A DNA stretch of 56,027 nt, taken from contig JBBQXJ010000024.1 in the NCBI GenBank assembly GCA_038209745.1, positions 1 through 56,027 of the forward strand. The letters run 5' to 3'. The notes below the pieces were generated by a model that was not told the DNA's origin, did not search any database, and was given only the letters and a program-made list of their open reading frames with translations. The position numbers and the translations under genes were made by a program. Shown here piece by piece: positions 6,019-56,027 of this stretch (within the stretch, counting starts at the first letter, position 1; each line of letters opens with the position of its first letter). Source of the stretch: Verrucomicrobiota bacterium (GTDB taxonomy: Bacteria; Verrucomicrobiota; Verrucomicrobiia; Limisphaerales; CANJSG01).

Positions 6019-8169
6019 TCAATTCCCCGACCGCAGTGTGACGATGCGGCCCTGGGACATGCGCTTGATCGACAGCCGCAGATCGCCGCCGACGGCGGTC
6101 AACCGCTCGAAGTCCGCCACGGAATTGACCGGCTGGTCGTTCACATGGGTGATGAGCTCGTAGGGCTTGATGCCCGCGATGGACGCCTTGCCACCGGGTT
6201 CGAGCTTGGACACCACCACGCCGGGCTGGTCTGCGGTCCGTTGCAGATAGTGGCGCACCTCGTAGGTCAGATCCTTGACCGTGAGTCCCAGCGTGTCCGA
6301 CTTCACCTTGTTGGCCGACTGGTAGTGGGCCGGGCTCGGGGTGACGGTGAATTCGTGGCTCTTCGCCACGCCATTGGAGACGTATTCCAGGCGGAACTTC
6401 CCGCCGAATCCAAGCTCGGTCAGGACGCGGTTGACCGTGTTGTCCACCGGAGGCCAAGGCGAGGGGAGGCGGTCGAAGAACTGTTCACGGAGCTGGTCGA
6501 GACGATCCCACGGGAACATGTCGCGCGACCGGTCCTCCTCGATGCGGATCTCGATCGGCGCCGCCTGGCCCGGCGCCACTACCCGCAACAGAATGTCGCC
6601 CGTCTTCACTCCCGCCTCGGACGCCGGCGAACCGGGGTACACATACGTCACCAATGCGCCGGTCTGCCCGTCCCGTGTCTGGTCGGCCACGTTGTTGGCG
6701 CGGGCCAGATCCTGGTCGAGGCTCTGCAGCTCGACGCCCAGCCAGGCGACACGGCCCGCGTCCGCCTCGGACAACGGCACGTTCGCGGGATCGGAACTGG
6801 TCGCGAGATCGCCCAGCGCCTCGGAGACATACTTTGCCGGCACCATCATTTCACGGGTGTCGAACCGGCTGCTGCGATCGAGCGAAGCGTTGCCGCGGAG
6901 AGCCATCGGCACGGCCACGAGCCGGGCATCCTGATCGAAGAGGAAGATCCCGCTTTGATCCTCGTAGAGCCGGGAAAAGATCCGCTCCTTGGCCCCCATC
7001 TCGAACCACAGAAGCCGTTCCCGGTTGAAATAGGCGGACCGCTGTTCCCCCAGCACCATCACCTCGGAGCGCAGCAGCAGTTTCATCCGATGGTCGCGCA
7101 GATCCGCGATCGACAGCTGGACACCGTTCCCGATGGACTTGTCCAGCGTCAGGATCAAAGCCCCGAAATCCTTGAGCGACGCGGTGAACTTGCCCTCGAT
7201 CACTTCGTCGCCCACATGCACGCGGATCCGCTCCAGGCGCGCCGTCACCTTGGGCGGCAGGGCCAACGGCACCAGCACCCGGCTCCCGCCGATGACGATG
7301 CCCACCACGTTGCGCTCGGTCGCGCTCTCCATCGGGTCCTCGTCGAAGCCGCGCCGCAAAGTGGACGCCATCGCCGAGGCGACGGTTGGGCTGCGGAAGT
7401 TCAAGGTGACGTGGACCAGTCCAGTGTCGGTCGATTTCTCCAGATCCTTCAAATGGCGCTCCATCTGCGCCTGCGTCCACATCGGCCACGTCATCGGTGA
7501 ACCGCGCCAACCGGATTCGGCCGGGGTAAAAGGCTTGATGGCCACGCCCACGGGGTTGCCCTTCTTGTCGGTGATGAGCATGTCCGCCTGGATCGGCACG
7601 TCGGCCTCGCGGCCGTGCCATTTCAGCAGCGAAGCCGAGAACCCGGAGACCGTCGCGGCCCATTCGCCGTTGTAGAACGTATAACCGACGGCCGAGAACG
7701 GCCCCGCCGCATCGTCCTTGAACTTCGACTCCTTGATCCCGGCCAAAGGCGCCGACAGCCGGAGGATCAACGCATCGCGGTCCAGGACATAGAACGCCGG
7801 CGTCGCCTCGACCTCCTGGTCGCCCTTGCGGACGGTGATCTTCTTGATGAAACGCGGGTGGACCATCGGATCGGTCAGCATCACCAGATCCTTGCCCACG
7901 ACGAAGCCGCCGGATTCCCACGGCCGTTCCTCGCGGATCAGCTGGTTGAGATCCATTTCGCCGGCGGCCGCCCGGCCCAAGCCGCTCGACTGTCGGGTGG
8001 GCCCGTCGCTGCCATCGAACTGGAGGTGGAACTGGACGCGGACCAAGTAAGGATCGGCATTGGCCAGAAGCGCCTTCTGGCTCTCGACGTCCTTGGTCTC
8101 GGCGGCGCGGGCGGCGAACGGGATCAACCCGATCAACGCGGCGATCAACAGGGTGCGGAATGGTTTCAT
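6019..8169 (-). CDS. Secreted PDZ-domain protein with degenerate trypsin-like domains
   Basis: Start taken at MKPFRTLLIAALIG (signal peptide). PDZ motifs AWLGVELQ..., YPGSPASEAGVKTGDILL and GGKASIAGIKPYELITHVN. No GNSGG motif. Confidence 0.85.
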   Translation of the reverse strand: MKPFRTLLIAALIGLIPFAARAAETKDVESQKALLANADPYLVRVQFHLQFDGSDGPTRQSSGLGRAAAGEMDLNQLIREERPWESGGFVVGKDLVMLTDPMVHPRFIKKITVRKGDQEVEATPAFYVLDRDALILRLSAPLAGIKESKFKDDAAGPFSAVGYTFYNGEWAATVSGFSASLLKWHGREADVPIQADMLITDKKGNPVGVAIKPFTPAESGWRGSPMTWPMWTQAQMERHLKDLEKSTDTGLVHVTLNFRSPTVASAMASTLRRGFDEDPMESATERNVVGIVIGGSRVLVPLALPPKVTARLERIRVHVGDEVIEGKFTASLKDFGALILTLDKSIGNGVQLSIADLRDHRMKLLLRSEVMVLGEQRSAYFNRERLLWFEMGAKERIFSRLYEDQSGIFLFDQDARLVAVPMALRGNASLDRSSRFDTREMMVPAKYVSEALGDLATSSDPANVPLSEADAGRVAWLGVELQSLDQDLARANNVADQTRDGQTGALVTYVYPGSPASEAGVKTGDILLRVVAPGQAAPIEIRIEEDRSRDMFPWDRLDQLREQFFDRLPSPWPPVDNTVNRVLTELGFGGKFRLEYVSNGVAKSHEFTVTPSPAHYQSANKVKSDTLGLTVKDLTYEVRHYLQRTADQPGVVVSKLEPGGKASIAGIKPYELITHVNDQPVNSVADFERLTAVGGDLRLSIKRMSQGRIVTLRSGN

Positions 8170-20674: not shown

Positions 20675-22843
20675 TCAGGGAGCGGGTCGGGACAAGCGGA
20701 AGAACTGCTGTTGATTGGTCGCGGGCCGCGTGATGTGCAGTTCGGCACCGGAGAGGGCGGGCACATTCGACAGTGTCTGCCACGAGCTACCCGCCGGAAG
20801 CTGGCCAACCGCCTGGACGGTGAAGTTGCTCCACTGCGACGGCCAGGACAGCACCACATTCGTCTGGCTGCCCTGCAGGATCTTGAGCGTCGGGGCCGTG
20901 TCGACGAAGACCACCACCATCGCGGAATTGTCCGCTTGGAAAAGATCCGCGGTCGAAGCCGTCACCATGGCGGTCGCCGCCGCGCCGATCGGAGGATTGG
21001 CCAGCACCGTCACCCGGCAGTTCAAGTTCAGGGTCCACGAGTTCGATCGTTCCAGGCTGCCGAGCGACGCGGTCCCGCCCATGGAACTGGTCGAGACGGA
21101 CCCAGCGGACACCGAGGCCGATTGGACCGCCAGAAAGAACGGCACCTCCAGCTTCAGCACCAAATTCGTCGCGCCGTTCGGTCCGGCATTCGTCACCACG
21201 GCGGAGAGGAGGACGGACTCGCCCACCGTCGCCGGACTCCGGTCCACCGCGATCTGCACCGCCAGATCGGCGCTCGGGGCGATCTGGAAAAACTGCACGC
21301 TGTCGACCACCCCTCCGGGCGTGGTCACCGTCACAAAACCCGCCGTGGCATTGGCGGGAACCGTGGCATGGAGAGTGTTGTTGTCCACGACGGTAAACCC
21401 GCCGACCCGCCCGTTGAAGCGCACCTCCGAGGCGCCCGAAAGATTGGTGCCGGCAATCGTGATCACCGCTTGGACCGGCGCGTCCGAAGGATTCAAAGAG
21501 ACGATCACGGGCGGCAGGAAGAAGTTGGAGGAGGTCGTCGCTGACCCGAAGGGATTGAGCACGGAGACCGGACCAGTCGTCGCCCCGACCGGCACGACCG
21601 CGTTGATCTGCGTCCTGGAAACGACGAAGAAGGAAAGCGAGCGGACCGAACCGAACAGCACATTCGTCGCATCGATGAGGTTGTCGCCACGGATGACGAT
21701 CGGGTCGCCAACCGATCCGTTGGGCGGTGTGAACCCGCTGATCAACGGAGCTGAACCCGTCACCACGAAGTTGCTGGAGGACGAGTTGGTGCCGTACGCC
21801 GTGGAGACGGTGAAGAGCCCGCTCGAGGCGTTCGCCGGGATTGTCGCCAGCAGCTGGGTAGGGGCTGTGACACTCACTGCGGCGACGTTGGTGCCGTTCA
21901 GCTTCACCACGGTGCCGCCGGTGACGAAATTCACCCCGTCGATCGTCACGTGGGTTCCCGCCGGTCCGTAAACCGGACTGAAACCGAGAACTTCGGGCGC
22001 GTAGCCGATGAGGAAGTTCGTCGACGTGGTGTTCGTGCCGTAGGGCGTGACGACGGAGATCGGCGCGGTCACCGCGTTGGCCGGGACCCGGGCATGGATC
22101 TGGGTGCCGGCCGTGAAGACCAGCTGCGAGGCCAGGTTTGTGCCGAAGCGGACCAGCGTGGAGCCGCTGTAGAAGTTCACTCCATTGATGACCACCTCGG
22201 TGCCGGGCACGCCGCGCACCGGATTGAAGTCCGTGATGAGCGGACCTCCGCCGAAGGGATAGAAATTCGTCGACGTGACGAAGGTGCCGTACGCGACACT
22301 GAAGCTGTTGCTGGCCGTTATCGGGCCGGGAACGGCCCCGGCGGGAACCTTGACGCGGATCTGGCCGACGGCGGGGCCGGTCAATGGGACCCCCGTCGTA
22401 ACGGCTCCGCCGAACCAAACCTTCGTCGAGGTGTCGAGGTTCTTCCCGTAAAGCGAGACCTCGGTGTTCGTCTGGCCGGTGAGCGGATAGAACGACGCGA
22501 CATAGGGCTGGCCGCGCAGGACGACAAAGTCGTTCGTCGTCACAAAACTCGATCCACCCACCGTCACCGTGATCGGTCCGGTCGTGGCCGAAGCGGGGAC
22601 CTTGCTGTTGATCTGGGAGCTGGCCGCCACGTAGGGCGCCGCATCTTGCACGCCGTTGAAGTAGACCTTGGCCCCGGTCGCAAAGCCCGACCCGCTGATG
22701 ACAACGGTTTCCTGCGAACCGGGTGTGCCATACGGCAGTTCAAACCCAGTCACGATCGGAACCGCAGAAACTGAAAATGCCGCCAAGACCCCGATTCCCA
22801 AACCCAAGCGGAGAACCTCCCGAACTCGATACGGATCACACAT
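20675..22843 (-). CDS. Secreted IPT/TIG-repeat protein with DUF11-like domain and C-terminal FFRL domain
   Basis: About six repeats of P.I..F.P..G..GT.V.I.G.NF...VP..A.TGPI.V; ADLAV...VTNAGPNGAT (DUF11-like). Start inferred at MCDPY. Confidence 0.88.
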   Translation of the reverse strand: MCDPYRVREVLRLGLGIGVLAAFSVSAVPIVTGFELPYGTPGSQETVVISGSGFATGAKVYFNGVQDAAPYVAASSQINSKVPASATTGPITVTVGGSSFVTTNDFVVLRGQPYVASFYPLTGQTNTEVSLYGKNLDTSTKVWFGGAVTTGVPLTGPAVGQIRVKVPAGAVPGPITASNSFSVAYGTFVTSTNFYPFGGGPLITDFNPVRGVPGTEVVINGVNFYSGSTLVRFGTNLASQLVFTAGTQIHARVPANAVTAPISVVTPYGTNTTSTNFLIGYAPEVLGFSPVYGPAGTHVTIDGVNFVTGGTVVKLNGTNVAAVSVTAPTQLLATIPANASSGLFTVSTAYGTNSSSSNFVVTGSAPLISGFTPPNGSVGDPIVIRGDNLIDATNVLFGSVRSLSFFVVSRTQINAVVPVGATTGPVSVLNPFGSATTSSNFFLPPVIVSLNPSDAPVQAVITIAGTNLSGASEVRFNGRVGGFTVVDNNTLHATVPANATAGFVTVTTPGGVVDSVQFFQIAPSADLAVQIAVDRSPATVGESVLLSAVVTNAGPNGATNLVLKLEVPFFLAVQSASVSAGSVSTSSMGGTASLGSLERSNSWTLNLNCRVTVLANPPIGAAATAMVTASTADLFQADNSAMVVVFVDTAPTLKILQGSQTNVVLSWPSQWSNFTVQAVGQLPAGSSWQTLSNVPALSGAELHITRPATNQQQFFRLSRPAP

Positions 22844-51171: not shown

Positions 51172-53013
51172 TTACGCCAGCACACGCTCCAGCAGGGAGT
51201 TCATCCGCTTGAGCATGGCGCGCGGGTCCTCCATCACGCCGGCGGCCACGCGGGCGTTGTCGAGGATCGTCTCCACCACTTCGCCGGCGAAGGCGACGTC
51301 CTTCTGCCGCATCTGGTCGAGGCGCACGATGATCGGGTGGGCCGGATTGATCTCCAGGTCCTGTTGCTCGGGCGGCAACGCGTCCTCCTCCTTCTTCATC
51401 GCCTTCAGCATCCGCCGCATGCTGTTCGTCAGATGCTTGTCGCCGTCCACCACCACGGCCGGGCTGTCCACCAACCGCTGCGACACGCGGACCTCGCCCA
51501 CCTTGTCGCCGAGCGTGGTCTTGATCCATTCCGAAAGGGTCTTCGCCGTGGCTTCGTCCAGAGCGCCGTCCTTCTTGGGTTCGTTCAGGCTGAGATCGGC
51601 CTTCTCGGCGGCCTTCAGCGGCTTGCCGTCGAACTCGTGCAGATGCTCCATGACGAACTCGTCCCACGCGTCGTAGAGGAAGAGCACCTCGAACTTCCGC
51701 TCGCGGAACACCTCGTAGTAGGGGCTCGCCTCGGCCGCTTCGCGGTTCGGCGCCATCAGGCAATAGATCTCCTTCTGCTCGGAGGCCATGCGCTTCACGT
51801 AGTCGGCGAGCGACGTGGTCTTGCCCTTCGCCAGCACGGAGGACTCGTAGCGGATCAGCTTCCCGAGCGCGTCCTTGTGCGTGTAGTCGATGACGATGCC
51901 CTCCTTCAGGAAGCGGTGATACTCGGAGTAGAACTTCTCGTAGGTCTCCGGATCCTTCTCCGCCGTCTCGTCGAGGAACTTCAGGAAGCGGCTGGTCAGC
52001 ACCTTGTTCAGCTTCTGCAGCAGCGAGGTGTCCTGCATCGTCTCGCGCGAGATGTTCAACGGCAGGTCCTCGCTGTCCACCACGCCCTTGAGAAAGCGCA
52101 GCCATTCGGGAAAAAGCCCCTTGGCCTTCGCCTGGATGAGGATCTTGCGGCAATAGAGGTTCACCTCGGACTCGATCCGGCCCACGCCCATCGACTCCCA
52201 GTTCTTCCCCGGGACATAGAGCAGCGACTGGATGGCGATCGGCGCGTCGGCGTTGAAATGCAGGCGCAGCAAAGGCTTCTCCTGGTCGTGCCCGATGAAC
52301 TGGTAGAACTCGTCGTATTCCTCCGGCTTGATCCCGCTCTTGCTCCGCGTCCACAGCGCCTGGACCGTGTTCACCTTCTCGCCGTTCAGCTCGATGGGGA
52401 AGGACACGAAGCTCGAATACCGCTTGATGATCCGCTCGAGGGTCGACTTCTCGCCGAATTCCTTCGCCTCGTCCTTCAGCTCCAGCGTGATCTTGGTGCC
52501 GCGCGGCAGATCCGCCGCCGGCACGATCTCATATCCGCCCGTGCCTTCGCTGACCCATTGCCAACCCGGCTCCTCCGGAATGAACGACCGGCTCAGGACC
52601 GTCACCCGCTTGGCCGCCATGAAGGCCGAGTAGAACCCGACGCCGAACTGGCCGATCAAACCCACGTCCGGCTTCTTGTCCTCCGCCAATTGCTTGAGGA
52701 ACGCCTTCGTGCCGGAATGCGCGATCGTGCCGAGATTCGTCACCAGCTCGTCGTGCGTCATGCCCACGCCCGTGTCCGTGATGGTCAGCGTGCCCGCCTC
52801 GGCGTCGACCGCGAGCGTGATGACCGGGGCCGTGTCCGCATCACGCACCGCAGCGCCGGACGACTGGGAAAAACGGAGCTTCTCGCATGCATCGGCCGCG
52901 TTCGAGACCAGCTCCCGGACGAAGATCTCTTTGTCGGTGTAGAGCGAATGGATGACGATGTTCAGCAGCTGCTGGATCTCCGCCTGGAAAGTATGCTTCT
53001 CGGTCGAACTCAT
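51172..53013 (-). CDS. htpG: Molecular chaperone HtpG (Hsp90)
   Basis: FQAEIQQLL, YTDKEIFVRELVSNAADA, IGQFGVGFYSAF and GVVDSEDLPLNISRE. Confidence 0.98.
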   Translation of the reverse strand: MSSTEKHTFQAEIQQLLNIVIHSLYTDKEIFVRELVSNAADACEKLRFSQSSGAAVRDADTAPVITLAVDAEAGTLTITDTGVGMTHDELVTNLGTIAHSGTKAFLKQLAEDKKPDVGLIGQFGVGFYSAFMAAKRVTVLSRSFIPEEPGWQWVSEGTGGYEIVPAADLPRGTKITLELKDEAKEFGEKSTLERIIKRYSSFVSFPIELNGEKVNTVQALWTRSKSGIKPEEYDEFYQFIGHDQEKPLLRLHFNADAPIAIQSLLYVPGKNWESMGVGRIESEVNLYCRKILIQAKAKGLFPEWLRFLKGVVDSEDLPLNISRETMQDTSLLQKLNKVLTSRFLKFLDETAEKDPETYEKFYSEYHRFLKEGIVIDYTHKDALGKLIRYESSVLAKGKTTSLADYVKRMASEQKEIYCLMAPNREAAEASPYYEVFRERKFEVLFLYDAWDEFVMEHLHEFDGKPLKAAEKADLSLNEPKKDGALDEATAKTLSEWIKTTLGDKVGEVRVSQRLVDSPAVVVDGDKHLTNSMRRMLKAMKKEEDALPPEQQDLEINPAHPIIVRLDQMRQKDVAFAGEVVETILDNARVAAGVMEDPRAMLKRMNSLLERVLA

Positions 53014-53101
53014 AGGTCGGCATTGCATAGAAAGTGCGGGAAGTTTCGTCAAGAGATCGGTGGCACCCCGTTTCCGCCCGGCTCCAATTCCCGGGTCCAA
53101 T

Positions 53102-53252
53102 GGTCGGGCGACGGCTCCGAGCGAACCGCCTTGGGGTGGGCTCGTTCCCAATGAGCCGACACGGGCAATTCCGGAGCGCCTCACCGTCGCCAGAGCCACT
53201 CTCCCGTCGTCAGCAGATCACGCGGCGGCTTGGCGGGCGCCAGCGCCCTACC
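53102..53252. repeat. REP-like inverted pair, same family as the 5659 copy
   Basis: 53102-53135 matches 5659-5692 at 27/34. The distal arm 53223-53252 reads GGTAGGGCG... on the minus strand. Confidence 0.6.
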
Positions 53253-53352
53253 TCCGTCTATCCGCTTGCCAGCCGACTGCGAGCACAGGAATTTCAGGCC
53301 GCACTTTCCAGATCCGAACCAAGAATCGTCCTCCAATCCCGCCGAGATCCCC

Positions 53353-53805
53353 ATGAACCAGATCACCATTCCCACCGACGGCGGCCAGGCTGTCAACATC
53401 CTGGGCATCCCCATGCTCATCCGGCTCAAAGGTAGCGAGACGGGCGGCATTCTGGGCGTGGTCGAATCGCGCGACGTGCCGGGTGGCGGACCTCCGCCGC
53501 ACATCCACCACCGCGAAGACGAGACCTTCCAGATCCTCGAGGGCGACTATGAATGGACCGTGGGCGAACAGACCTTCGTCGCCGGGAAAGGCGCGACCGT
53601 CTTTGCTCCGCGCGGCGTGGTCCACACCTACCGCTACCTCGGCCAAACGCCCGGCCGGCTCATGTGCATCATCACGCCCTCCGGATTCGAGGGCTTCTTC
53701 GAGGACATCGGCGCGCTAAGTCCGCAGGAACAACAGGACCTCCCCCGGGTGATCGGGATCGGGCAGAAATACGGCCTCCAATTCCTGCCGCCGCCGTCGG
53801 CCTGA
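53353..53805 (+). CDS. Cupin domain protein (quercetin dioxygenase-like)
   Basis: GPPPHIHHREDETF and FAPRGVVHTY cupin motifs. Confidence 0.93.
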   Translation: MNQITIPTDGGQAVNILGIPMLIRLKGSETGGILGVVESRDVPGGGPPPHIHHREDETFQILEGDYEWTVGEQTFVAGKGATVFAPRGVVHTYRYLGQTPGRLMCIITPSGFEGFFEDIGALSPQEQQDLPRVIGIGQKYGLQFLPPPSA

Positions 53806-53837
53806 GCGTGATGCCAAAGAGGCTGTTGGACCAATTC

Positions 53838-54230
53838 ATGAAAGCTCGTGTCCTGCTTTGGCTCGCACTGTCGGTTCAGATCGTATTTCTGGTTTAATGG
53901 TTGTTCGTCAGCCCGGAAGTGCAGGGCGAGTTGAAGGTTGCCCAGGACGAACTGGAGACGGGGCATGCCGATTTGCCGGCGCTTACGGTTCGCCACGTCG
54001 ACTCTTCTGAGACGATCGATTCATACGATCCCTCCAAATCGGCCAGCGAGAAGCTGGCTGCGAGGGCCATCTTGATGGCTGTCGCATGCCGATGCTTGGA
54101 TACCCAGCATCAGTCACAGTCGCCATGCTCGCTAGGTTACTGAACGTCGTTCTGTTGATGACGCTACTGTTTCTGAATCGTCAAAGATCCAACGAGAATC
54201 TGCACGCAACCACCGCCCCGCCGCATGAAC
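53838..54230 (+). pseudogene. Decayed small membrane-protein gene, possibly an integron cassette
   Basis: MKARVLLWLALSVQIVFLV*WLFVSPEV... has an in-frame TAA at 53895 within a TM helix. A second TM segment (VAMLARLLNVVLLMTLLFL) lies in another frame. Confidence 0.5.
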
Positions 54231-54262
54231 CCCCACAGTAGAGCCAGGTTCACCTCGTTCGT

Positions 54263-54308
54263 TCGGGTCGAACTGGTCCGACGCGTCTTCGAGATCGACG
54301 ATCCGTCA
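54263..54308 (+). repeat. 46-bp direct repeat A, copy 1
   Basis: TCGGGTCGAACTGGTCCGACGCGTCTTCGAGATCGACGATCCGTCA; 44/46 identical to 55048-55093. Confidence 0.95.
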
Positions 54309-54313
54309 AGATG

Positions 54314-54337
54314 CCGACTATTGACCTGTCCCTTTGT
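54314..54337 (+). repeat. 24-bp direct repeat B, copy 1
   Basis: CCGACTATTGACCTGTCCCTTTGT; identical to 55003-55026. Confidence 0.95.
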
Positions 54338-54373
54338 CTTTCTTTGCTTTCGTATTCACTGGAAAATGGTGAG

Positions 54374-54757
54374 ATGAACAAGGAAAGCCAAGCCATAGCC
54401 CGTGACGTGGATACCTTTGCGTTTTCAGTGCTAAAGCATAGCGAATTCATGTTTGAGAATCCGATTGAAGCTAATTTGCACTATGACAAGTTCATCTGGG
54501 CGTTAAAGCGGCTAGCTAAGTGTGGTGATTGTGGTCTGTCCGCCTTGGCTGAATTGCTGGATGACGAACGGGCTGTTGTTCGAGTTACAGCGGCATGTTA
54601 TCTGATACATTGCAGCACCGAAAAATCAATTAAAGTGTTAACAGAAGCGGCCAAAGAAGACAGAGGCATCGCAATGCTGGCAATTATTACACTTGAACGC
54701 TGGAAAAGAGGAATCTATTTTGATCCACTAACGGGAAAGGAGACTGATTTCCAATAA
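54374..54757 (+). CDS. DUF2019-like helical (HEAT-like) putative immunity protein
   Basis: ANLHYDKF...LAELLDDERAVVRVTAACYL...VLTEAA...AIITLERWKRG pattern; AT-richer DNA; ATG at 54374. Confidence 0.65.
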   Translation: MNKESQAIARDVDTFAFSVLKHSEFMFENPIEANLHYDKFIWALKRLAKCGDCGLSALAELLDDERAVVRVTAACYLIHCSTEKSIKVLTEAAKEDRGIAMLAIITLERWKRGIYFDPLTGKETDFQ

Positions 54758-54758
54758 A

Positions 54759-54938
54759 CGAACTAGGTTCCAACACGGCTTGGCTCCGGCCGATAAAGTG
54801 TGGCGGACTTTCGACATCCATCACATCAAGTCGAAAGAACTTGGATGTGGTAAACATTTCTGGAACTTAGTGCCGGTTGAACGGAAAACCCATCAAAACT
54901 TGTTTAATAGCTTATGGGGAGAATTCACCGAATTATGA
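54759..54938 (+). pseudogene. HNH-nuclease toxin C-terminal fragment
   Basis: Translates RTRFQHGLAPADKVWRTFDIHHIKSKELGCGKHFWNLVPVERKTHQNLFNSLWGEFTEL* (DIHHI...NLVP...H). No ATG start; not in the ORF track. Confidence 0.7.
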
Positions 54939-55002
54939 TGAACGTTGGAGAAGTCATAGACCTGCTTAAGGCGGAATGGCGGAGCCCGCGTGAGGCTAAT
55001 TT
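54935..55002 (+). pseudogene. 5' fragment of the gene coupled to the HNH toxin (probable immunity gene), truncated at repeat B
   Basis: ATGA overlap with the HNH stop; MMNVGEVIDLLKAEWRSPREAN then runs into repeat B. Confidence 0.5.
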
Positions 55003-55026
55003 CCGACTATTGACCTGTCCCTTTGT
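55003..55026 (+). repeat. 24-bp direct repeat B, copy 2
   Basis: Identical to 54314-54337. Confidence 0.95.
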
Positions 55027-55047
55027 ATTCTCGGGTCCTTTGTATTC

Positions 55048-55093
55048 TCGGGTCGAACTGGTCCGACGCATCTTCGAGATCGCCGATCCGTCA
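55048..55093 (+). repeat. 46-bp direct repeat A, copy 2
   Basis: 44/46 identical to 54263-54308. Confidence 0.95.
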
Positions 55094-55112
55094 CCGCGCA
55101 TAGCCTAATAAT

Positions 55113-55887
55113 ATGATCCGCGCTTCTCTTCCCGCCCTGCTGCTGTTGACGACCCAACTCTCGGTGCCGGGAGCGGACTGGCAACCGGTCCCGGTCCATC
55201 GGATCACGCCCGAAAAGCCCGGCTACGGCGGCCTCTGCGGGATCGTCGTCGATCACGCTACGGGCGACGTCTTCGTCGATGTCAGCGACCTCGGTTTCTA
55301 TCGGTCGGCCGACCAAGGGGAGACCTGGAAACACGTCCCTGCGCTTCCGCTCAAAGGACGCACTGAAACGCCGGGCTGCTGGACGATCAACCCGACCGGC
55401 GAAAACAAGACGATGGTCACGGCGCTGGTCTACGGCGCGCCGATCACGGTCGGCACCGAGTCGGCCTCCGGCTTCAAGCATTTCGACAAGCGGTCCGAGC
55501 ACATCGACTGGTGCGCCGTCGATTGGACGGATCCGGCGATGGGATTCGTGCTCGCGCTCAAGCACGAGCAGGCGGGACTGCTCATCGCCTCGAACGACGG
55601 CGGCCAGTCGTTCCGCGATGTGGGCAAAGGCTTTATTTCCGGGTGGGTCTTCGATGGGAAGACCGCCGTTGTAGCCCGGGAAGGTCCGGAGCCGACCCTT
55701 CAGCGCACGACCGACGCGGGGCACACGTTCGTGTCCTGCGGGGGGTTCATGCCGGCCGGAAATGCCAGCGCGCGGGCCCTGCCGAGGTGGAAAGACGGCT
55801 CCCTCTACTGGCTGACCCGACAGGGTTTGATCGTCACCGACGACAAGGGTCTGTCGTGGAACAAGCTCTCCGATGTGCCGAAAGGGC
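55113..55887 (+). pseudogene. Secreted BNR/Asp-box beta-propeller protein truncated by IS66
   Basis: Signal peptide; Asp-boxes RSADQGETW, SNDGGQSF, TTDAGHTF and TDDKGLSW. The frame runs into the IS end and stops at 55916. Confidence 0.75.
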
Positions 55888-56027
55888 GTAAGCGTCCTGC
55901 GGAGCGGCTCTGTTAGAGCGGCGGCATAGATGTCATAGGGATGGGTCTATGGCATCGATGAAGCTGTTGAAGAGGGACGTGCTGGGGCGGGTGCGGACGC
56001 CGAGGGCGAAACGGGAGGAGATCCTGG
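55888..56027 (+). mobile_element. Left end of an IS66-family element (contig break)
   Basis: Begins GTAAGCGTCC, the typical IS66 GTAA terminus, followed by a tnpA-like start. Confidence 0.85.
55949..56027 (+). CDS. tnpA: IS66 accessory protein TnpA, N-terminal fragment (partial)
   Basis: MASMKLLKRDVLGRVRTPRAKREEIL..., located 61 nt inside the IS66 end. Confidence 0.7.
   Translation, partial: MASMKLLKRDVLGRVRTPRAKREEIL

Follow-up and report, generated by a model that had tools for sequence, protein, structure and literature searches.

A REP-like repeat linked to a RAYT-type transposase gene borders strain-variable DNA in a Verrucomicrobiota bacterium

Introduction

Which process leaves two different direct repeats, one nested within the other, around a short piece of DNA that does not resemble the rest of the genome? 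This question is raised by a stretch of 56,027 nucleotides (nt) from a Verrucomicrobiota bacterium (contig JBBQXJ010000024.1 of GenBank assembly GCA_038209745.1; the whole stretch is referred to as the window), in which an outer repeat, A, and an inner repeat, B, occur in the order A-B-cargo-B-A around ~650 bp of DNA with 45% GC in a genome of 64% GC. A model-generated reading of the sequence, in the following termed the original prediction, regarded this arrangement as the best candidate of the window for an undescribed system, in which B would be the site of a trans-acting enzyme, one candidate being an HUH/IS200-RAYT-like transposase, that captures arbitrary slices of DNA, and A either a long target duplication or a second recombination site. 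Here, we analyze both repeats, the cargo, the DNA that adjoins B elsewhere in the genome, and the corresponding locus in other strains. Based on our findings we consider it probable that mobile DNA has long been decaying at this locus as in a graveyard, where A is a scrap of an IS481-like gene, B is a repetitive extragenic palindromic (REP)-like repeat linked to a REP-associated tyrosine transposase (RAYT), and the cargo between the B copies turns over.

Results

Architecture of the locus

The nested direct repeats are borne out, with A matching at 44 of 46 positions and B being identical over 24 nt and matching at 26 of 27 positions over 27 nt (Table 1). At the right junction B copy 2 is followed by ATTC and then by A copy 2, and what had been noticed there as a short stutter is an exact 17-nt tandem duplication, the unit of which joins the final 7 nt of B to ATTC and to the initial 6 nt of A. 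The GC content is 0.43-0.475 in 200-nt intervals starting at 54300-54800, as compared to 0.62-0.68 in the neighbouring genes. No inverted repeats of at least 14 nt were found in 53000-56027.

Twenty sequencing runs were found, four of which (X1-X4) were examined as k = 31 contigs at 90% likeness; X2-X4 come from other studies. In X1 this second assembler rebuilt both sides of the locus in two contigs, corresponding to 54183-54397 and 54380-55142, with 100% identity and depths of 4.8-6, the depth of the flanks being 4.8-7. This argues against the misassembly that the original prediction had named as a possible refutation. X1 contains 85% of the sampled words and may be the source sample of the window itself, and the same reads may underlie both assemblies.

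B belongs to a dispersed, lineage-specific family

B occurs elsewhere in the genome, as the original prediction had demanded. Its 24-mer gives 17 matches at up to three mismatches and the reversed control none, and A is present only twice in the 4.58-Mb assembly, both times in the window, even if 10 mismatches are allowed; chance was therefore set aside for both repeats. With the 17-nt core at up to two mismatches, and after dropping one two-mismatch match on contig C1 that is not accompanied by the flanking consensus, 20 copies of B were aligned. They have a sharp consensus in common and unique flanks on both sides, and overall the 17 to 20 copies stand against 0-1 in reversed controls.

The family unit comprises ~33 nt with the core ATTGACCTGTCCCTTTG. 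Its conserved block reads roughly (T-rich) CTGACT ATTGACCTGTCCCTTTG TATT. Both window copies contain the private variant CCGACT and are thus copies of one another. The full unit consists of a small hairpin, CAATAG-CTGA-CTATTG, and a subsequent tail, ACCTGTCCCTTTGT, of which most copies retain only the right hairpin arm and the tail. The window copies do not fold (z-scores of -0.54 and +1.17). The left arm CAATAG is kept by two copies, one of which (C91) folds as single-stranded DNA (ssDNA; z-score -3.78), the other (C127; z-score -0.98) behaving like shuffled sequences. A tight inverted doublet on C122 has 31-nt arms that are 21 nt apart and folds at -27.8 kcal/mol (z-score -8.4). Two wider inverted pairs enclose 1.2 and 3.2 kb, and direct pairs also occur. 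Most copies lie between open reading frames (ORFs) with family matches and are thus mainly extragenic; 11 of the 20 are located within ~1.1 kb of a contig end, and six have high-GC DNA on their 5' side and low-GC DNA on their 3' side.

Within the genus, the core of B (at most one mismatch) is present in four of the six other species, whereas 34 genomes that belong to different families of the order gave no match. Across the phylum, 400 sampled genomes yielded four single matches at one mismatch as compared to seven control matches, i.e. chance level, and the exact 17-mer has 77 matches in 596 Gb of genomes where ~70 are expected by chance, being multi-copy only in a handful of Verrucomicrobiota metagenome-assembled genomes (MAGs). 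A phylum-wide motif was ruled out, since outside a few lineages the matches are at chance level. Rfam gave no match at E-values up to 1 in 53700-55300 and none at the motif in 18 other loci that contain it, the sole match being a group II intron elsewhere in one of them (L087). A full-text literature search for two 12-mers returned unrelated primer sequences only. We conclude that B is a lineage-specific REP-like repeat, although most copies have lost the hairpin.

The original prediction had excluded insertion sequences (IS), clustered regularly interspaced short palindromic repeats (CRISPR) and attC sites, and each of these exclusions holds. An IS or a miniature inverted-repeat transposable element with inverted ends was rejected, as the window copies are direct, and as no flanking duplications were found at the inverted pairs, the interiors of which are devoid of a transposase. 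In a CRISPR array spacers have 25-50 nt, whereas the two B copies are 689 nt apart and the other copies are dispersed. Integron attC sites are palindromes of 60-140 nt and go along with IntI, whereas B has ~33 nt and no fold, and there is no integrase among the scanned ORFs of 53000-56027. Finally, B was rejected as a coding sequence, since the reading frame changes from copy to copy, although three of the six frames of B are open.

B is linked to a single-copy RAYT gene

REPs associated with RAYTs of the HUH/Y1 type are described in the available text of PMC3116915 and PMC3337134, and that of PMC5581495 gives a single-copy gene with flanking 16-mers that are abundant in the genome as hallmark of a RAYT. 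On C23 one B copy lies upstream of a gene for a protein of 325 amino acids (aa) that matches Pfam Y1_Tnp (E 2.1e-12, over the cut-off) and NCBIfam REP_Tyr_transpos, the REP-associated tyrosine transposase family (E 7.6e-17), and the translation of which contains the motifs NHFH (HUH) and YIDLNP (Y). The gene is single-copy, as tblastn finds C23:1147-2121 only; the other three PF01797 matches of the genome are different proteins and have no B copy nearby.

The neighbourhood of gene and repeat recurs in other lineages. RAYT homologues adjoin the exact 17-mer in species G006 (79% identity), in an Opitutales MAG (42%), and in a Verrucomicrobiae MAG (44%). In one further MAG they are found beside the exact 17-mer on three contigs, one of which carries the repeat upstream of the N-terminal part of the gene and another one an inverted repeat downstream of the C-terminal part. 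Moreover, in two more species a decayed N-terminal remnant of a RAYT gene lies behind the repeat. For a survey of homologues, 80 of 173 RAYT loci were fetched and matches with at most two mismatches to a 12-mer core were counted. At the 15 fetched loci with at least 52% identity the core is present 90-200 nt upstream, in the orientation observed here, in 10 cases, and as an inverted copy 200-330 nt downstream in four. The 65 more distant loci include one with an upstream core in the same orientation, four with an upstream core in the other orientation and none with an inverted downstream copy; elsewhere in the flanks the background rate is 0.013 per interval of the same size. Distant lineages have related, shifted motifs, e.g. 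GGGACAGGAC followed by the palindrome CTATCGATAG, and this matches the pattern that co-evolving pairs of repeat and enzyme would give. Judged by this linkage, B is the cognate repeat of a RAYT clade that includes the single RAYT-type gene of this genome. The predicted trans-acting HUH/RAYT-like enzyme is thus tied to B across lineages, whereas its catalytic role at B is what we infer.

Strains differ in the DNA between the two B copies

The strains in X2-X4 are 95-99% alike to the window over the cupin gene, the stub that contains A copy 1, A copy 1 itself and B copy 1 on the left side, and over B copy 2, A copy 2, and the BNR gene on the right side. In X4, a contig of 330 nt matches 54106-54341 with six other letters and then continues with 94 nt of other DNA that hold another B-like copy, and a contig of 1206 nt begins with 625 nt of other GC-rich DNA before it matches 54997-55595 with two other letters and without the stutter, here counted as 18 nt. 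Neither the 94-nt nor the 625-nt continuation is found in this genome, which is 92% complete. In X3, a contig of 1435 nt joins 54346 to 54997, the shorter side being 58 nt, again without the 17-nt stutter. The contigs of X2 and X3 that cover the start of the BNR gene match only from 55104 and differ upstream, and thus at least one further arrangement exists. No contig of X2-X4 covers 54396-54947 at a likeness of at least 90%, and missing contig cover was not counted as evidence of absence. Two joints, 54340>55000 and 54340>55006, have sides of 23-25 nt; they probably stem from other B copies and were not used.

With the caution that metagenome contigs require, we conclude that stub-A-B and B-A-BNR were already joined before the cargo came in, that strains have different DNA between the two intact resident B units, and that the 17-nt stutter belongs to this strain alone. 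As both A-B junctions are found in strains without this cargo, the cargo did not arrive together with the duplications of A and B. An empty allele, proposed in the original prediction as a check, was sought in the six other species of the genus, where the interval between cupin and BNR gene cannot be aligned and only the htpG end is conserved at the DNA level, leaving no empty allele for comparison. Likewise, searches with the flanks of the B loci at tig and rhaA gave no comparison allele, intergenic DNA being too diverged at a genic identity of 70-83%.

DNA beside B is truncated, copied or foreign

The 20 B copies have 40 flanks, of which seven listed ones (and one more by reciprocity) abut, within 10 nt, a segment that is at least 85% identical to DNA elsewhere in the genome. 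The A copies of the window belong to this kind, with gaps to B of 5 nt and of 4 nt, the latter plus the stutter. The pairs of patch and source are C91/C33, C91/C29, C37/C80, and C127/C50, and there is no B copy on any of the sources C33, C29, C80, and C50. The clearest patch is C91:16293-16665, a 373-nt internal piece of an AcrB-family gene on C33 (Pfam ACR_tran, E 9e-100, reaching the end of the profile) that is 98.9% identical to its source. The patch stops precisely where the hairpin of B begins to pair at its base, and the homology is lost on both sides.

At other loci B adjoins housekeeping genes that are intact; it lies 10-19 nt after the stop codons of rhaA and of a transglutaminase-like gene, or overlaps the 3' end of a cheB-cheR fusion. 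Fragments of Rhs repeats are found beside B copies, one of them (510 nt) between two direct copies on C23, and a C-terminal fragment of a phage integrase also adjoins B. The wide inverted pairs enclose low-GC islands, i.e. 1.2 kb with ~40% GC on C85 and 3.2 kb with ~48% GC on C79. The DNA beside B is thus heterogeneous and often truncated or copied, in line with the capture of arbitrary slices that the original prediction proposes.

The C79 island, between the inverted B copies and beside PLD-like and integrase fragments, contains an 829-aa low-GC ORF (C79:18428-20917, L016:3129-5618), residues 197-817 of which match the NCBIfam DS8 anti-phage family with E 1.3e-78, far below the equivalog cut-off; its N-terminus has, by eye, HNH-like cysteine and histidine residues. 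The island of the other inverted pair encodes a 330-aa ORF with no family match and, by eye, a hydrophobic signal-like N-terminal segment. In genome G004, contig C135 (L065) has two direct B copies that are 319 nt apart, behind which the translations suggest, by eye, a toxin-antitoxin pair that consists of a PIN/VapC-like C-terminal fragment and a small antitoxin-like ORF.

A is probably a scrap of an IS481-like gene

A copy 1 lies at the end of a 28-codon ORF that starts at 54225 and translates as MNPHSRARFTSFVRVELVRRVFEIDDPS. In a tblastn search of the own genome this 28-aa stub matches IS481-like N-termini at C5:43348 (48% identity, E 1.6e-4) and C45:10496. With its 28 aa the stub does not suffice for a Pfam match; its homologue in species G001 runs on into a decayed IS481-type transposase (Pfam LZ_Tnp_IS481, E 7.5e-4, below the cut-off). 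In DNA alignments the homology to the C5 and C45 copies starts upstream of the ATG, spans A, and fades at the end of A. Apart from these 28 codons nothing of the IS481 element is left in the window, the DDE domain and the inverted ends being absent. By sequence comparison, A thus appears to derive from a decayed IS481-like gene, of whose 5' coding end it represents 46 nt, i.e. it is a relic and not an element. At both variable sites A copy 2 has the base of the IS481-like relatives, implying that the left copy mutated after the duplication. The long target duplication or second recombination site of the original prediction is thus not supported, and no long flanking duplications were found around three other B-bounded modules on C85, C79, and C122.

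The cargo resembles a slice of a toxin-immunity array

The AT-richer cargo was rightly taken as foreign; it is strain-specific and has no other copy in the genome. It encodes no recombinase and is cut mid-gene at its right end, where B copy 2 follows after only ~22 codons of the last ORF, both as stated in the original prediction. The complete 127-aa ORF has only two homologues (57-60% identity) among 5.8 billion proteins and no relative in the genome_contigs collection; the role in immunity that we assign to it is suggested by its context. The match of the following short ORF to LHH was obtained with 54759-54938 as query, and the truncated third ORF has no family match. The order of an immunity-like ORF, a nuclease module, and an overlapping next ORF is presumably that of orphan cassettes of polymorphic toxins, the domain calls being weak.

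Table 1. Features of the nested-repeat locus and the gene linked to B (positions refer to the window unless a contig is given)
Feature	Position	Strand	Remarks
A copy 1	54263..54308	+	46 nt, direct-repeat family D1
A copy 2	55048..55093	+	46 nt, 44/46 (96%) vs copy 1
Joint AGATG between A copy 1 and B copy 1	54309..54313	+	5 nt
B copy 1	54314..54341	+	24-nt core 54314-54337, REP-like, private variant CCGACT, plus CTTT common to other strains
B copy 2, full unit TAATTT + CCGACTATTGACCTGTCCCTTTGT + ATTC	54997..55030	+	24-nt core 55003-55026
Exact 17-nt tandem duplication CCTTTGTATTCTCGGGT	55020-55036 + 55037-55053	+	family D6, spans junction of B end and A start
Strain-private low-GC cargo	54342..54996	+	left boundary 54342 vs X4, 54347 vs X3; GC ~0.45
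Complete 127-aa ORF, HEAT-repeat-like, putative immunity protein	54374..54757	+	Pfam HEAT_2 E 5.3e-4, below cut-off
Short ORF with HNH/LHH-nuclease-like motif, read as orphan toxin C-terminal module	54780..54938	+	Pfam LHH E 0.007, below cut-off
First ~22 codons of further ORF, cut by B copy 2	54935..55002	+	ATG at 54935 overlaps preceding stop
5' coding stub of decayed IS481-like transposase gene, 28 codons from ATG, contains A copy 1	54225..54308	+	tblastn
RAYT-type HUH/Y1 transposase gene, 325 aa	C23:1147-2124		B copy 29 nt upstream
Cupin-domain gene, left host neighbour	53230..53805	+	Pfam Cupin_2 E 3.1e-15; X2-X4 contigs cover at 95-99% likeness
BNR/Asp-box repeat gene, right host neighbour	55113..55916	+	Pfam BNR E 5.1e-7; X4 contig connects B copy 2 and A copy 2 to gene

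Discussion

In the reading that we consider probable, the locus between the cupin gene and the BNR-repeat gene would be an old graveyard of mobile DNA. Its scaffold, stub-A-AGATG-B...B-ATTC-A-BNR gene, would be older than the cargo and common to related strains, and the DNA between the two B copies would turn over, with a slice of a toxin-immunity array in this strain and unrelated GC-rich DNA in another one. As to the underlying process, the RAYT may nick B, or B may be otherwise prone to breaks. Repair or strand transfer at the nick could then join or copy whatever DNA is available, which would leave truncated genes, patches, and foreign slices against B. The second copy of A might be a short templated patch of this kind, and the 17-nt stutter might result from a later, private slippage. 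That an enzyme drives the capture step is, within this reading, a tentative proposition, which we deem possible but would not bet on.

Several observations weigh against this reading. The strain evidence consists of metagenome contigs (k = 31, 90% likeness), joints with short sides may stem from other B copies, and in the case of the X3 joint other letters may lie between both sides. The REP_Tyr_transpos score of the transposase is 61.6 bits and thus below the curated cut-off of 80, i.e. the protein is not an equivalog. Its gene has two upstream B copies and none downstream, and the distance to B is 29 nt as compared to ~85-100 nt in relatives, a spacing that suggests that the 5' end and the promoter of the gene may be damaged. 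Known RAYTs need the hairpin of the REP, and the left hairpin arm is missing from 18 of the 20 copies of B, among them the two of the window, which do not fold; 20 copies are also few for a REP family. The action of the enzyme at B is deduced from the linkage of gene and repeat, no cleavage, circle, or strand-transfer product having been observed, and the duplication of A is not explained by any direct evidence. Finally, recombination between B copies by RecA, or B landing in junk DNA, could yield many of the same junctions.

The latter point leads to the main rival, to which we give a small share of the probability: dispensable DNA around a short repeat would simply recombine and decay. It requires no dedicated enzyme: RecA-dependent or slipped-strand recombination would act between the short dispersed homologies of B, and between other repeats, in a non-essential spacer. 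B is indeed found at junctions of unrelated DNA and near 11 contig ends, the locus is full of other repeat families, and the CCGACT variant in both window copies is expected after a local duplication or conversion. On the other hand, the strain-variable segment lies strictly between intact B units (boundaries 54341/54342 and 54996/54997), which is not what a crossover inside B would leave. Moreover, as the sources of the patches, C33, C29, C80, and C50, have no B, an exchange between B copies cannot have moved these patches, and an identity of 24 nt would be at the lower limit for RecA exchange.

Improbable, in our view, is the integration of a small circular element with an A-like site at A in the IS481 stub. 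Such a Campbell-type event would duplicate A and make B and the cargo the interior of the element. Direct repeats of 46 nt have the size of many integrase attachment (att) cores, and the two differences between the A copies suggest that the event would be old. However, there is no integrase in this region of the window, A is nowhere else in the genome, and the interior is not one unit, as strains have A-B and B-A in common and differ between the B copies. A tRNA or integrase att site was also rejected, as there is no tRNA in the window.

Three further explanations have very little in their favour. The alternative contained in the original prediction, a transposon-like unit B-cargo-B with terminal direct repeats and a 46-bp target-site duplication, reproduces the geometry A-[x B ... 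B y]-A, but it is most improbable given the lack of flanking duplications at three other B-bounded modules (C85, C79, C122), the unrelated joints x (5 nt) and y (4 nt), a cargo that is younger than the scaffold, and the absence of a transposase inside. It is similarly hard to believe that B is a regulatory site which serves the RAYT gene and other genes, e.g. as operator or promoter element, and is positioned at junctions incidentally: the reverse complement of B is found just upstream of several ORF starts and at a fixed distance upstream of RAYT genes, and closely spaced B pairs exist in other lineages, but there is no sigma-70-like spacing by eye, B occurs in both orientations, lies downstream of rhaA and the transglutaminase-like gene and overlaps a 3' end, inverted doublets fold into long hairpins, and the copied patches that end at B would be left unexplained. 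An assembly artefact, i.e. a contig chimera through short repeats or a cargo from another organism, might be suspected in a metagenome assembly with ~140-nt overlaps at contig ends and a cargo that is ~20 points off in GC, but we attach hardly any weight to it, as A and B are shorter than the apparent final word length of the assembler, the k = 31 contigs (possibly from the same reads) span both sides with full identity at a depth equal to that of the flanks, and both repeat junctions are seen in three other runs.

If B and its RAYT are compared with known systems, the closest are the REP/RAYT systems ('REPtrons'). The likeness comprises a single-copy HUH/Y1 gene with HUH and Y motifs, a short repeat that flanks this gene in inverted orientation in relatives (upstream at 10 of 15 loci, downstream at 4 of 15), and the over-representation of the same repeat at mostly extragenic positions, including the inverted doublet on C122, which folds like a REPIN. 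There are also differences. The conserved part of B is a 14-17-nt non-palindromic tail instead of a hairpin, 18 of 20 copies being without hairpin; no GTAG tag is discernible by eye and the genome has only ~20 copies; the protein has 325 aa, its HUH motif being separated from the Y motif by ~110 residues, and it is extended at the C-terminus by a long segment; and B copies bracket strain-variable cargo and copied patches. Such repeat-bracketed variable cargo or patches were not met in the parts of the REP/RAYT literature covered, where no search was aimed at this point, and the available text of two RAYT surveys (PMC6006769, PMC5581495) contains no mention of Verrucomicrobia. In its gene and in the distribution of its repeat the system agrees with REP/RAYT, it deviates in the hairpin of most copies, and it is not a new class; the 'undescribed system' of the original prediction thus falls within a known kind.

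Three other comparisons concern the DNA at the repeats. Clusters of REPs and of bacterial interspersed mosaic elements (BIMEs) are said to be hot spots for insertion sequences and rearrangement, as reportedly found by Tobes and Pareja in 2006 and by Shyamala et al. in 1990. The available text of PMC8450116 describes ISPpu9 inserted into REPs. In a similar way foreign or mobile DNA gathers at the copies of B and joints of duplications lie at repeats, but between the B copies of the window there is no IS but a recombinase-less slice of a toxin-immunity array. IS91/ISCR elements and eukaryotic Helitrons are rolling-circle HUH elements that capture neighbouring DNA, and, as in their case, arbitrary pieces of genes, copies of host genes among them, lie directly against a single short conserved end. 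Their enzymes, however, are of the Y2 or Rep-helicase type and move together with the DNA that they capture, whereas here a single-copy Y1 RAYT is encoded elsewhere and no ori/ter pair is defined. Arrays of orphan toxin C-terminal/immunity cassettes, finally, occur at polymorphic toxin loci of the Rhs or contact-dependent inhibition (CDI) type. The order of the cargo ORFs and the Rhs fragments beside other B copies are in line with such arrays, but the locus has no Rhs or delivery gene, the domain matches are below the Pfam cut-offs, and the slice is bounded by REP-like repeats and not by homology blocks of toxin genes.

According to the usual description, the hairpin repeats of REP/RAYT systems spread by themselves and have no cargo. 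What is unusual here is that a RAYT-linked repeat consistently marks the precise limits of DNA that is captured, copied, or variable between strains, and of low-GC islands. Should the enzyme account for this, 'domesticated' transposases would as a whole class have a role in the installation of accessory DNA, an idea that is directly testable thanks to a short site and a gene in one copy. Otherwise, the locus is a clean example of short repeats that mark hot spots of genome turnover in uncultured Verrucomicrobiota. One may go further and speculate that this RAYT clade and its tail-dominated repeat form a capture-and-copy device, in which a nick at B is joined to, or primes the copying of, arbitrary ssDNA of the host or of incoming origin. 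We regard this as rather unlikely; if true, the device would be a bacterial Y1 counterpart of gene capture by ISCR elements or Helitrons, and B sites would be genomic 'sockets' for installing or exchanging defence genes, toxin-immunity genes, and accessory slices between strains.

Additional observations

A 675-aa ORF on the minus strand of the window (51172-53199) resembles HtpG/Hsp90 by eye, and its 5' end is the only conserved DNA (83-92%) if 52900-56027 is used as query in the other species of the genus. The contig ends of the window, 1-140 and 55888-56027, are ~140 nt that recur with 100% identity at the ends of further contigs (C110, C39, C111 and C43, C30, C70); these identical ends are overlaps in the assembly graph where multi-copy elements occur. 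Of the repeat at the left end, 48 nt (93-140) are also found 10 nt from a B copy on C85.

On C79, a perfectly palindromic 32-nt hairpin repeat with a 15-bp stem (C79:17961-18000 and 21824-21857; L016:2661-2700 and 6524-6557) sits 265 nt outside each of the inverted B copies. This symmetry was considered as a second nested case and rejected, as the intervening DNA is unrelated and the outer repeat is a separate family at contig ends, being part of a ~140-nt family found at many of them (C37, C56, C59, C65, C107, C114, C122). A further family of ~200 nt, represented by C6:81503-81702 and unrelated to B, is spread over the genome in more than 50 copies with identities of 78-88%. B copies are adjoined by long arrays of 21-nt tandem repeats at C91:16720-17075 and C127:139-567, and also at C45:30012-30205; such arrays recur on C54, C14, and C44.

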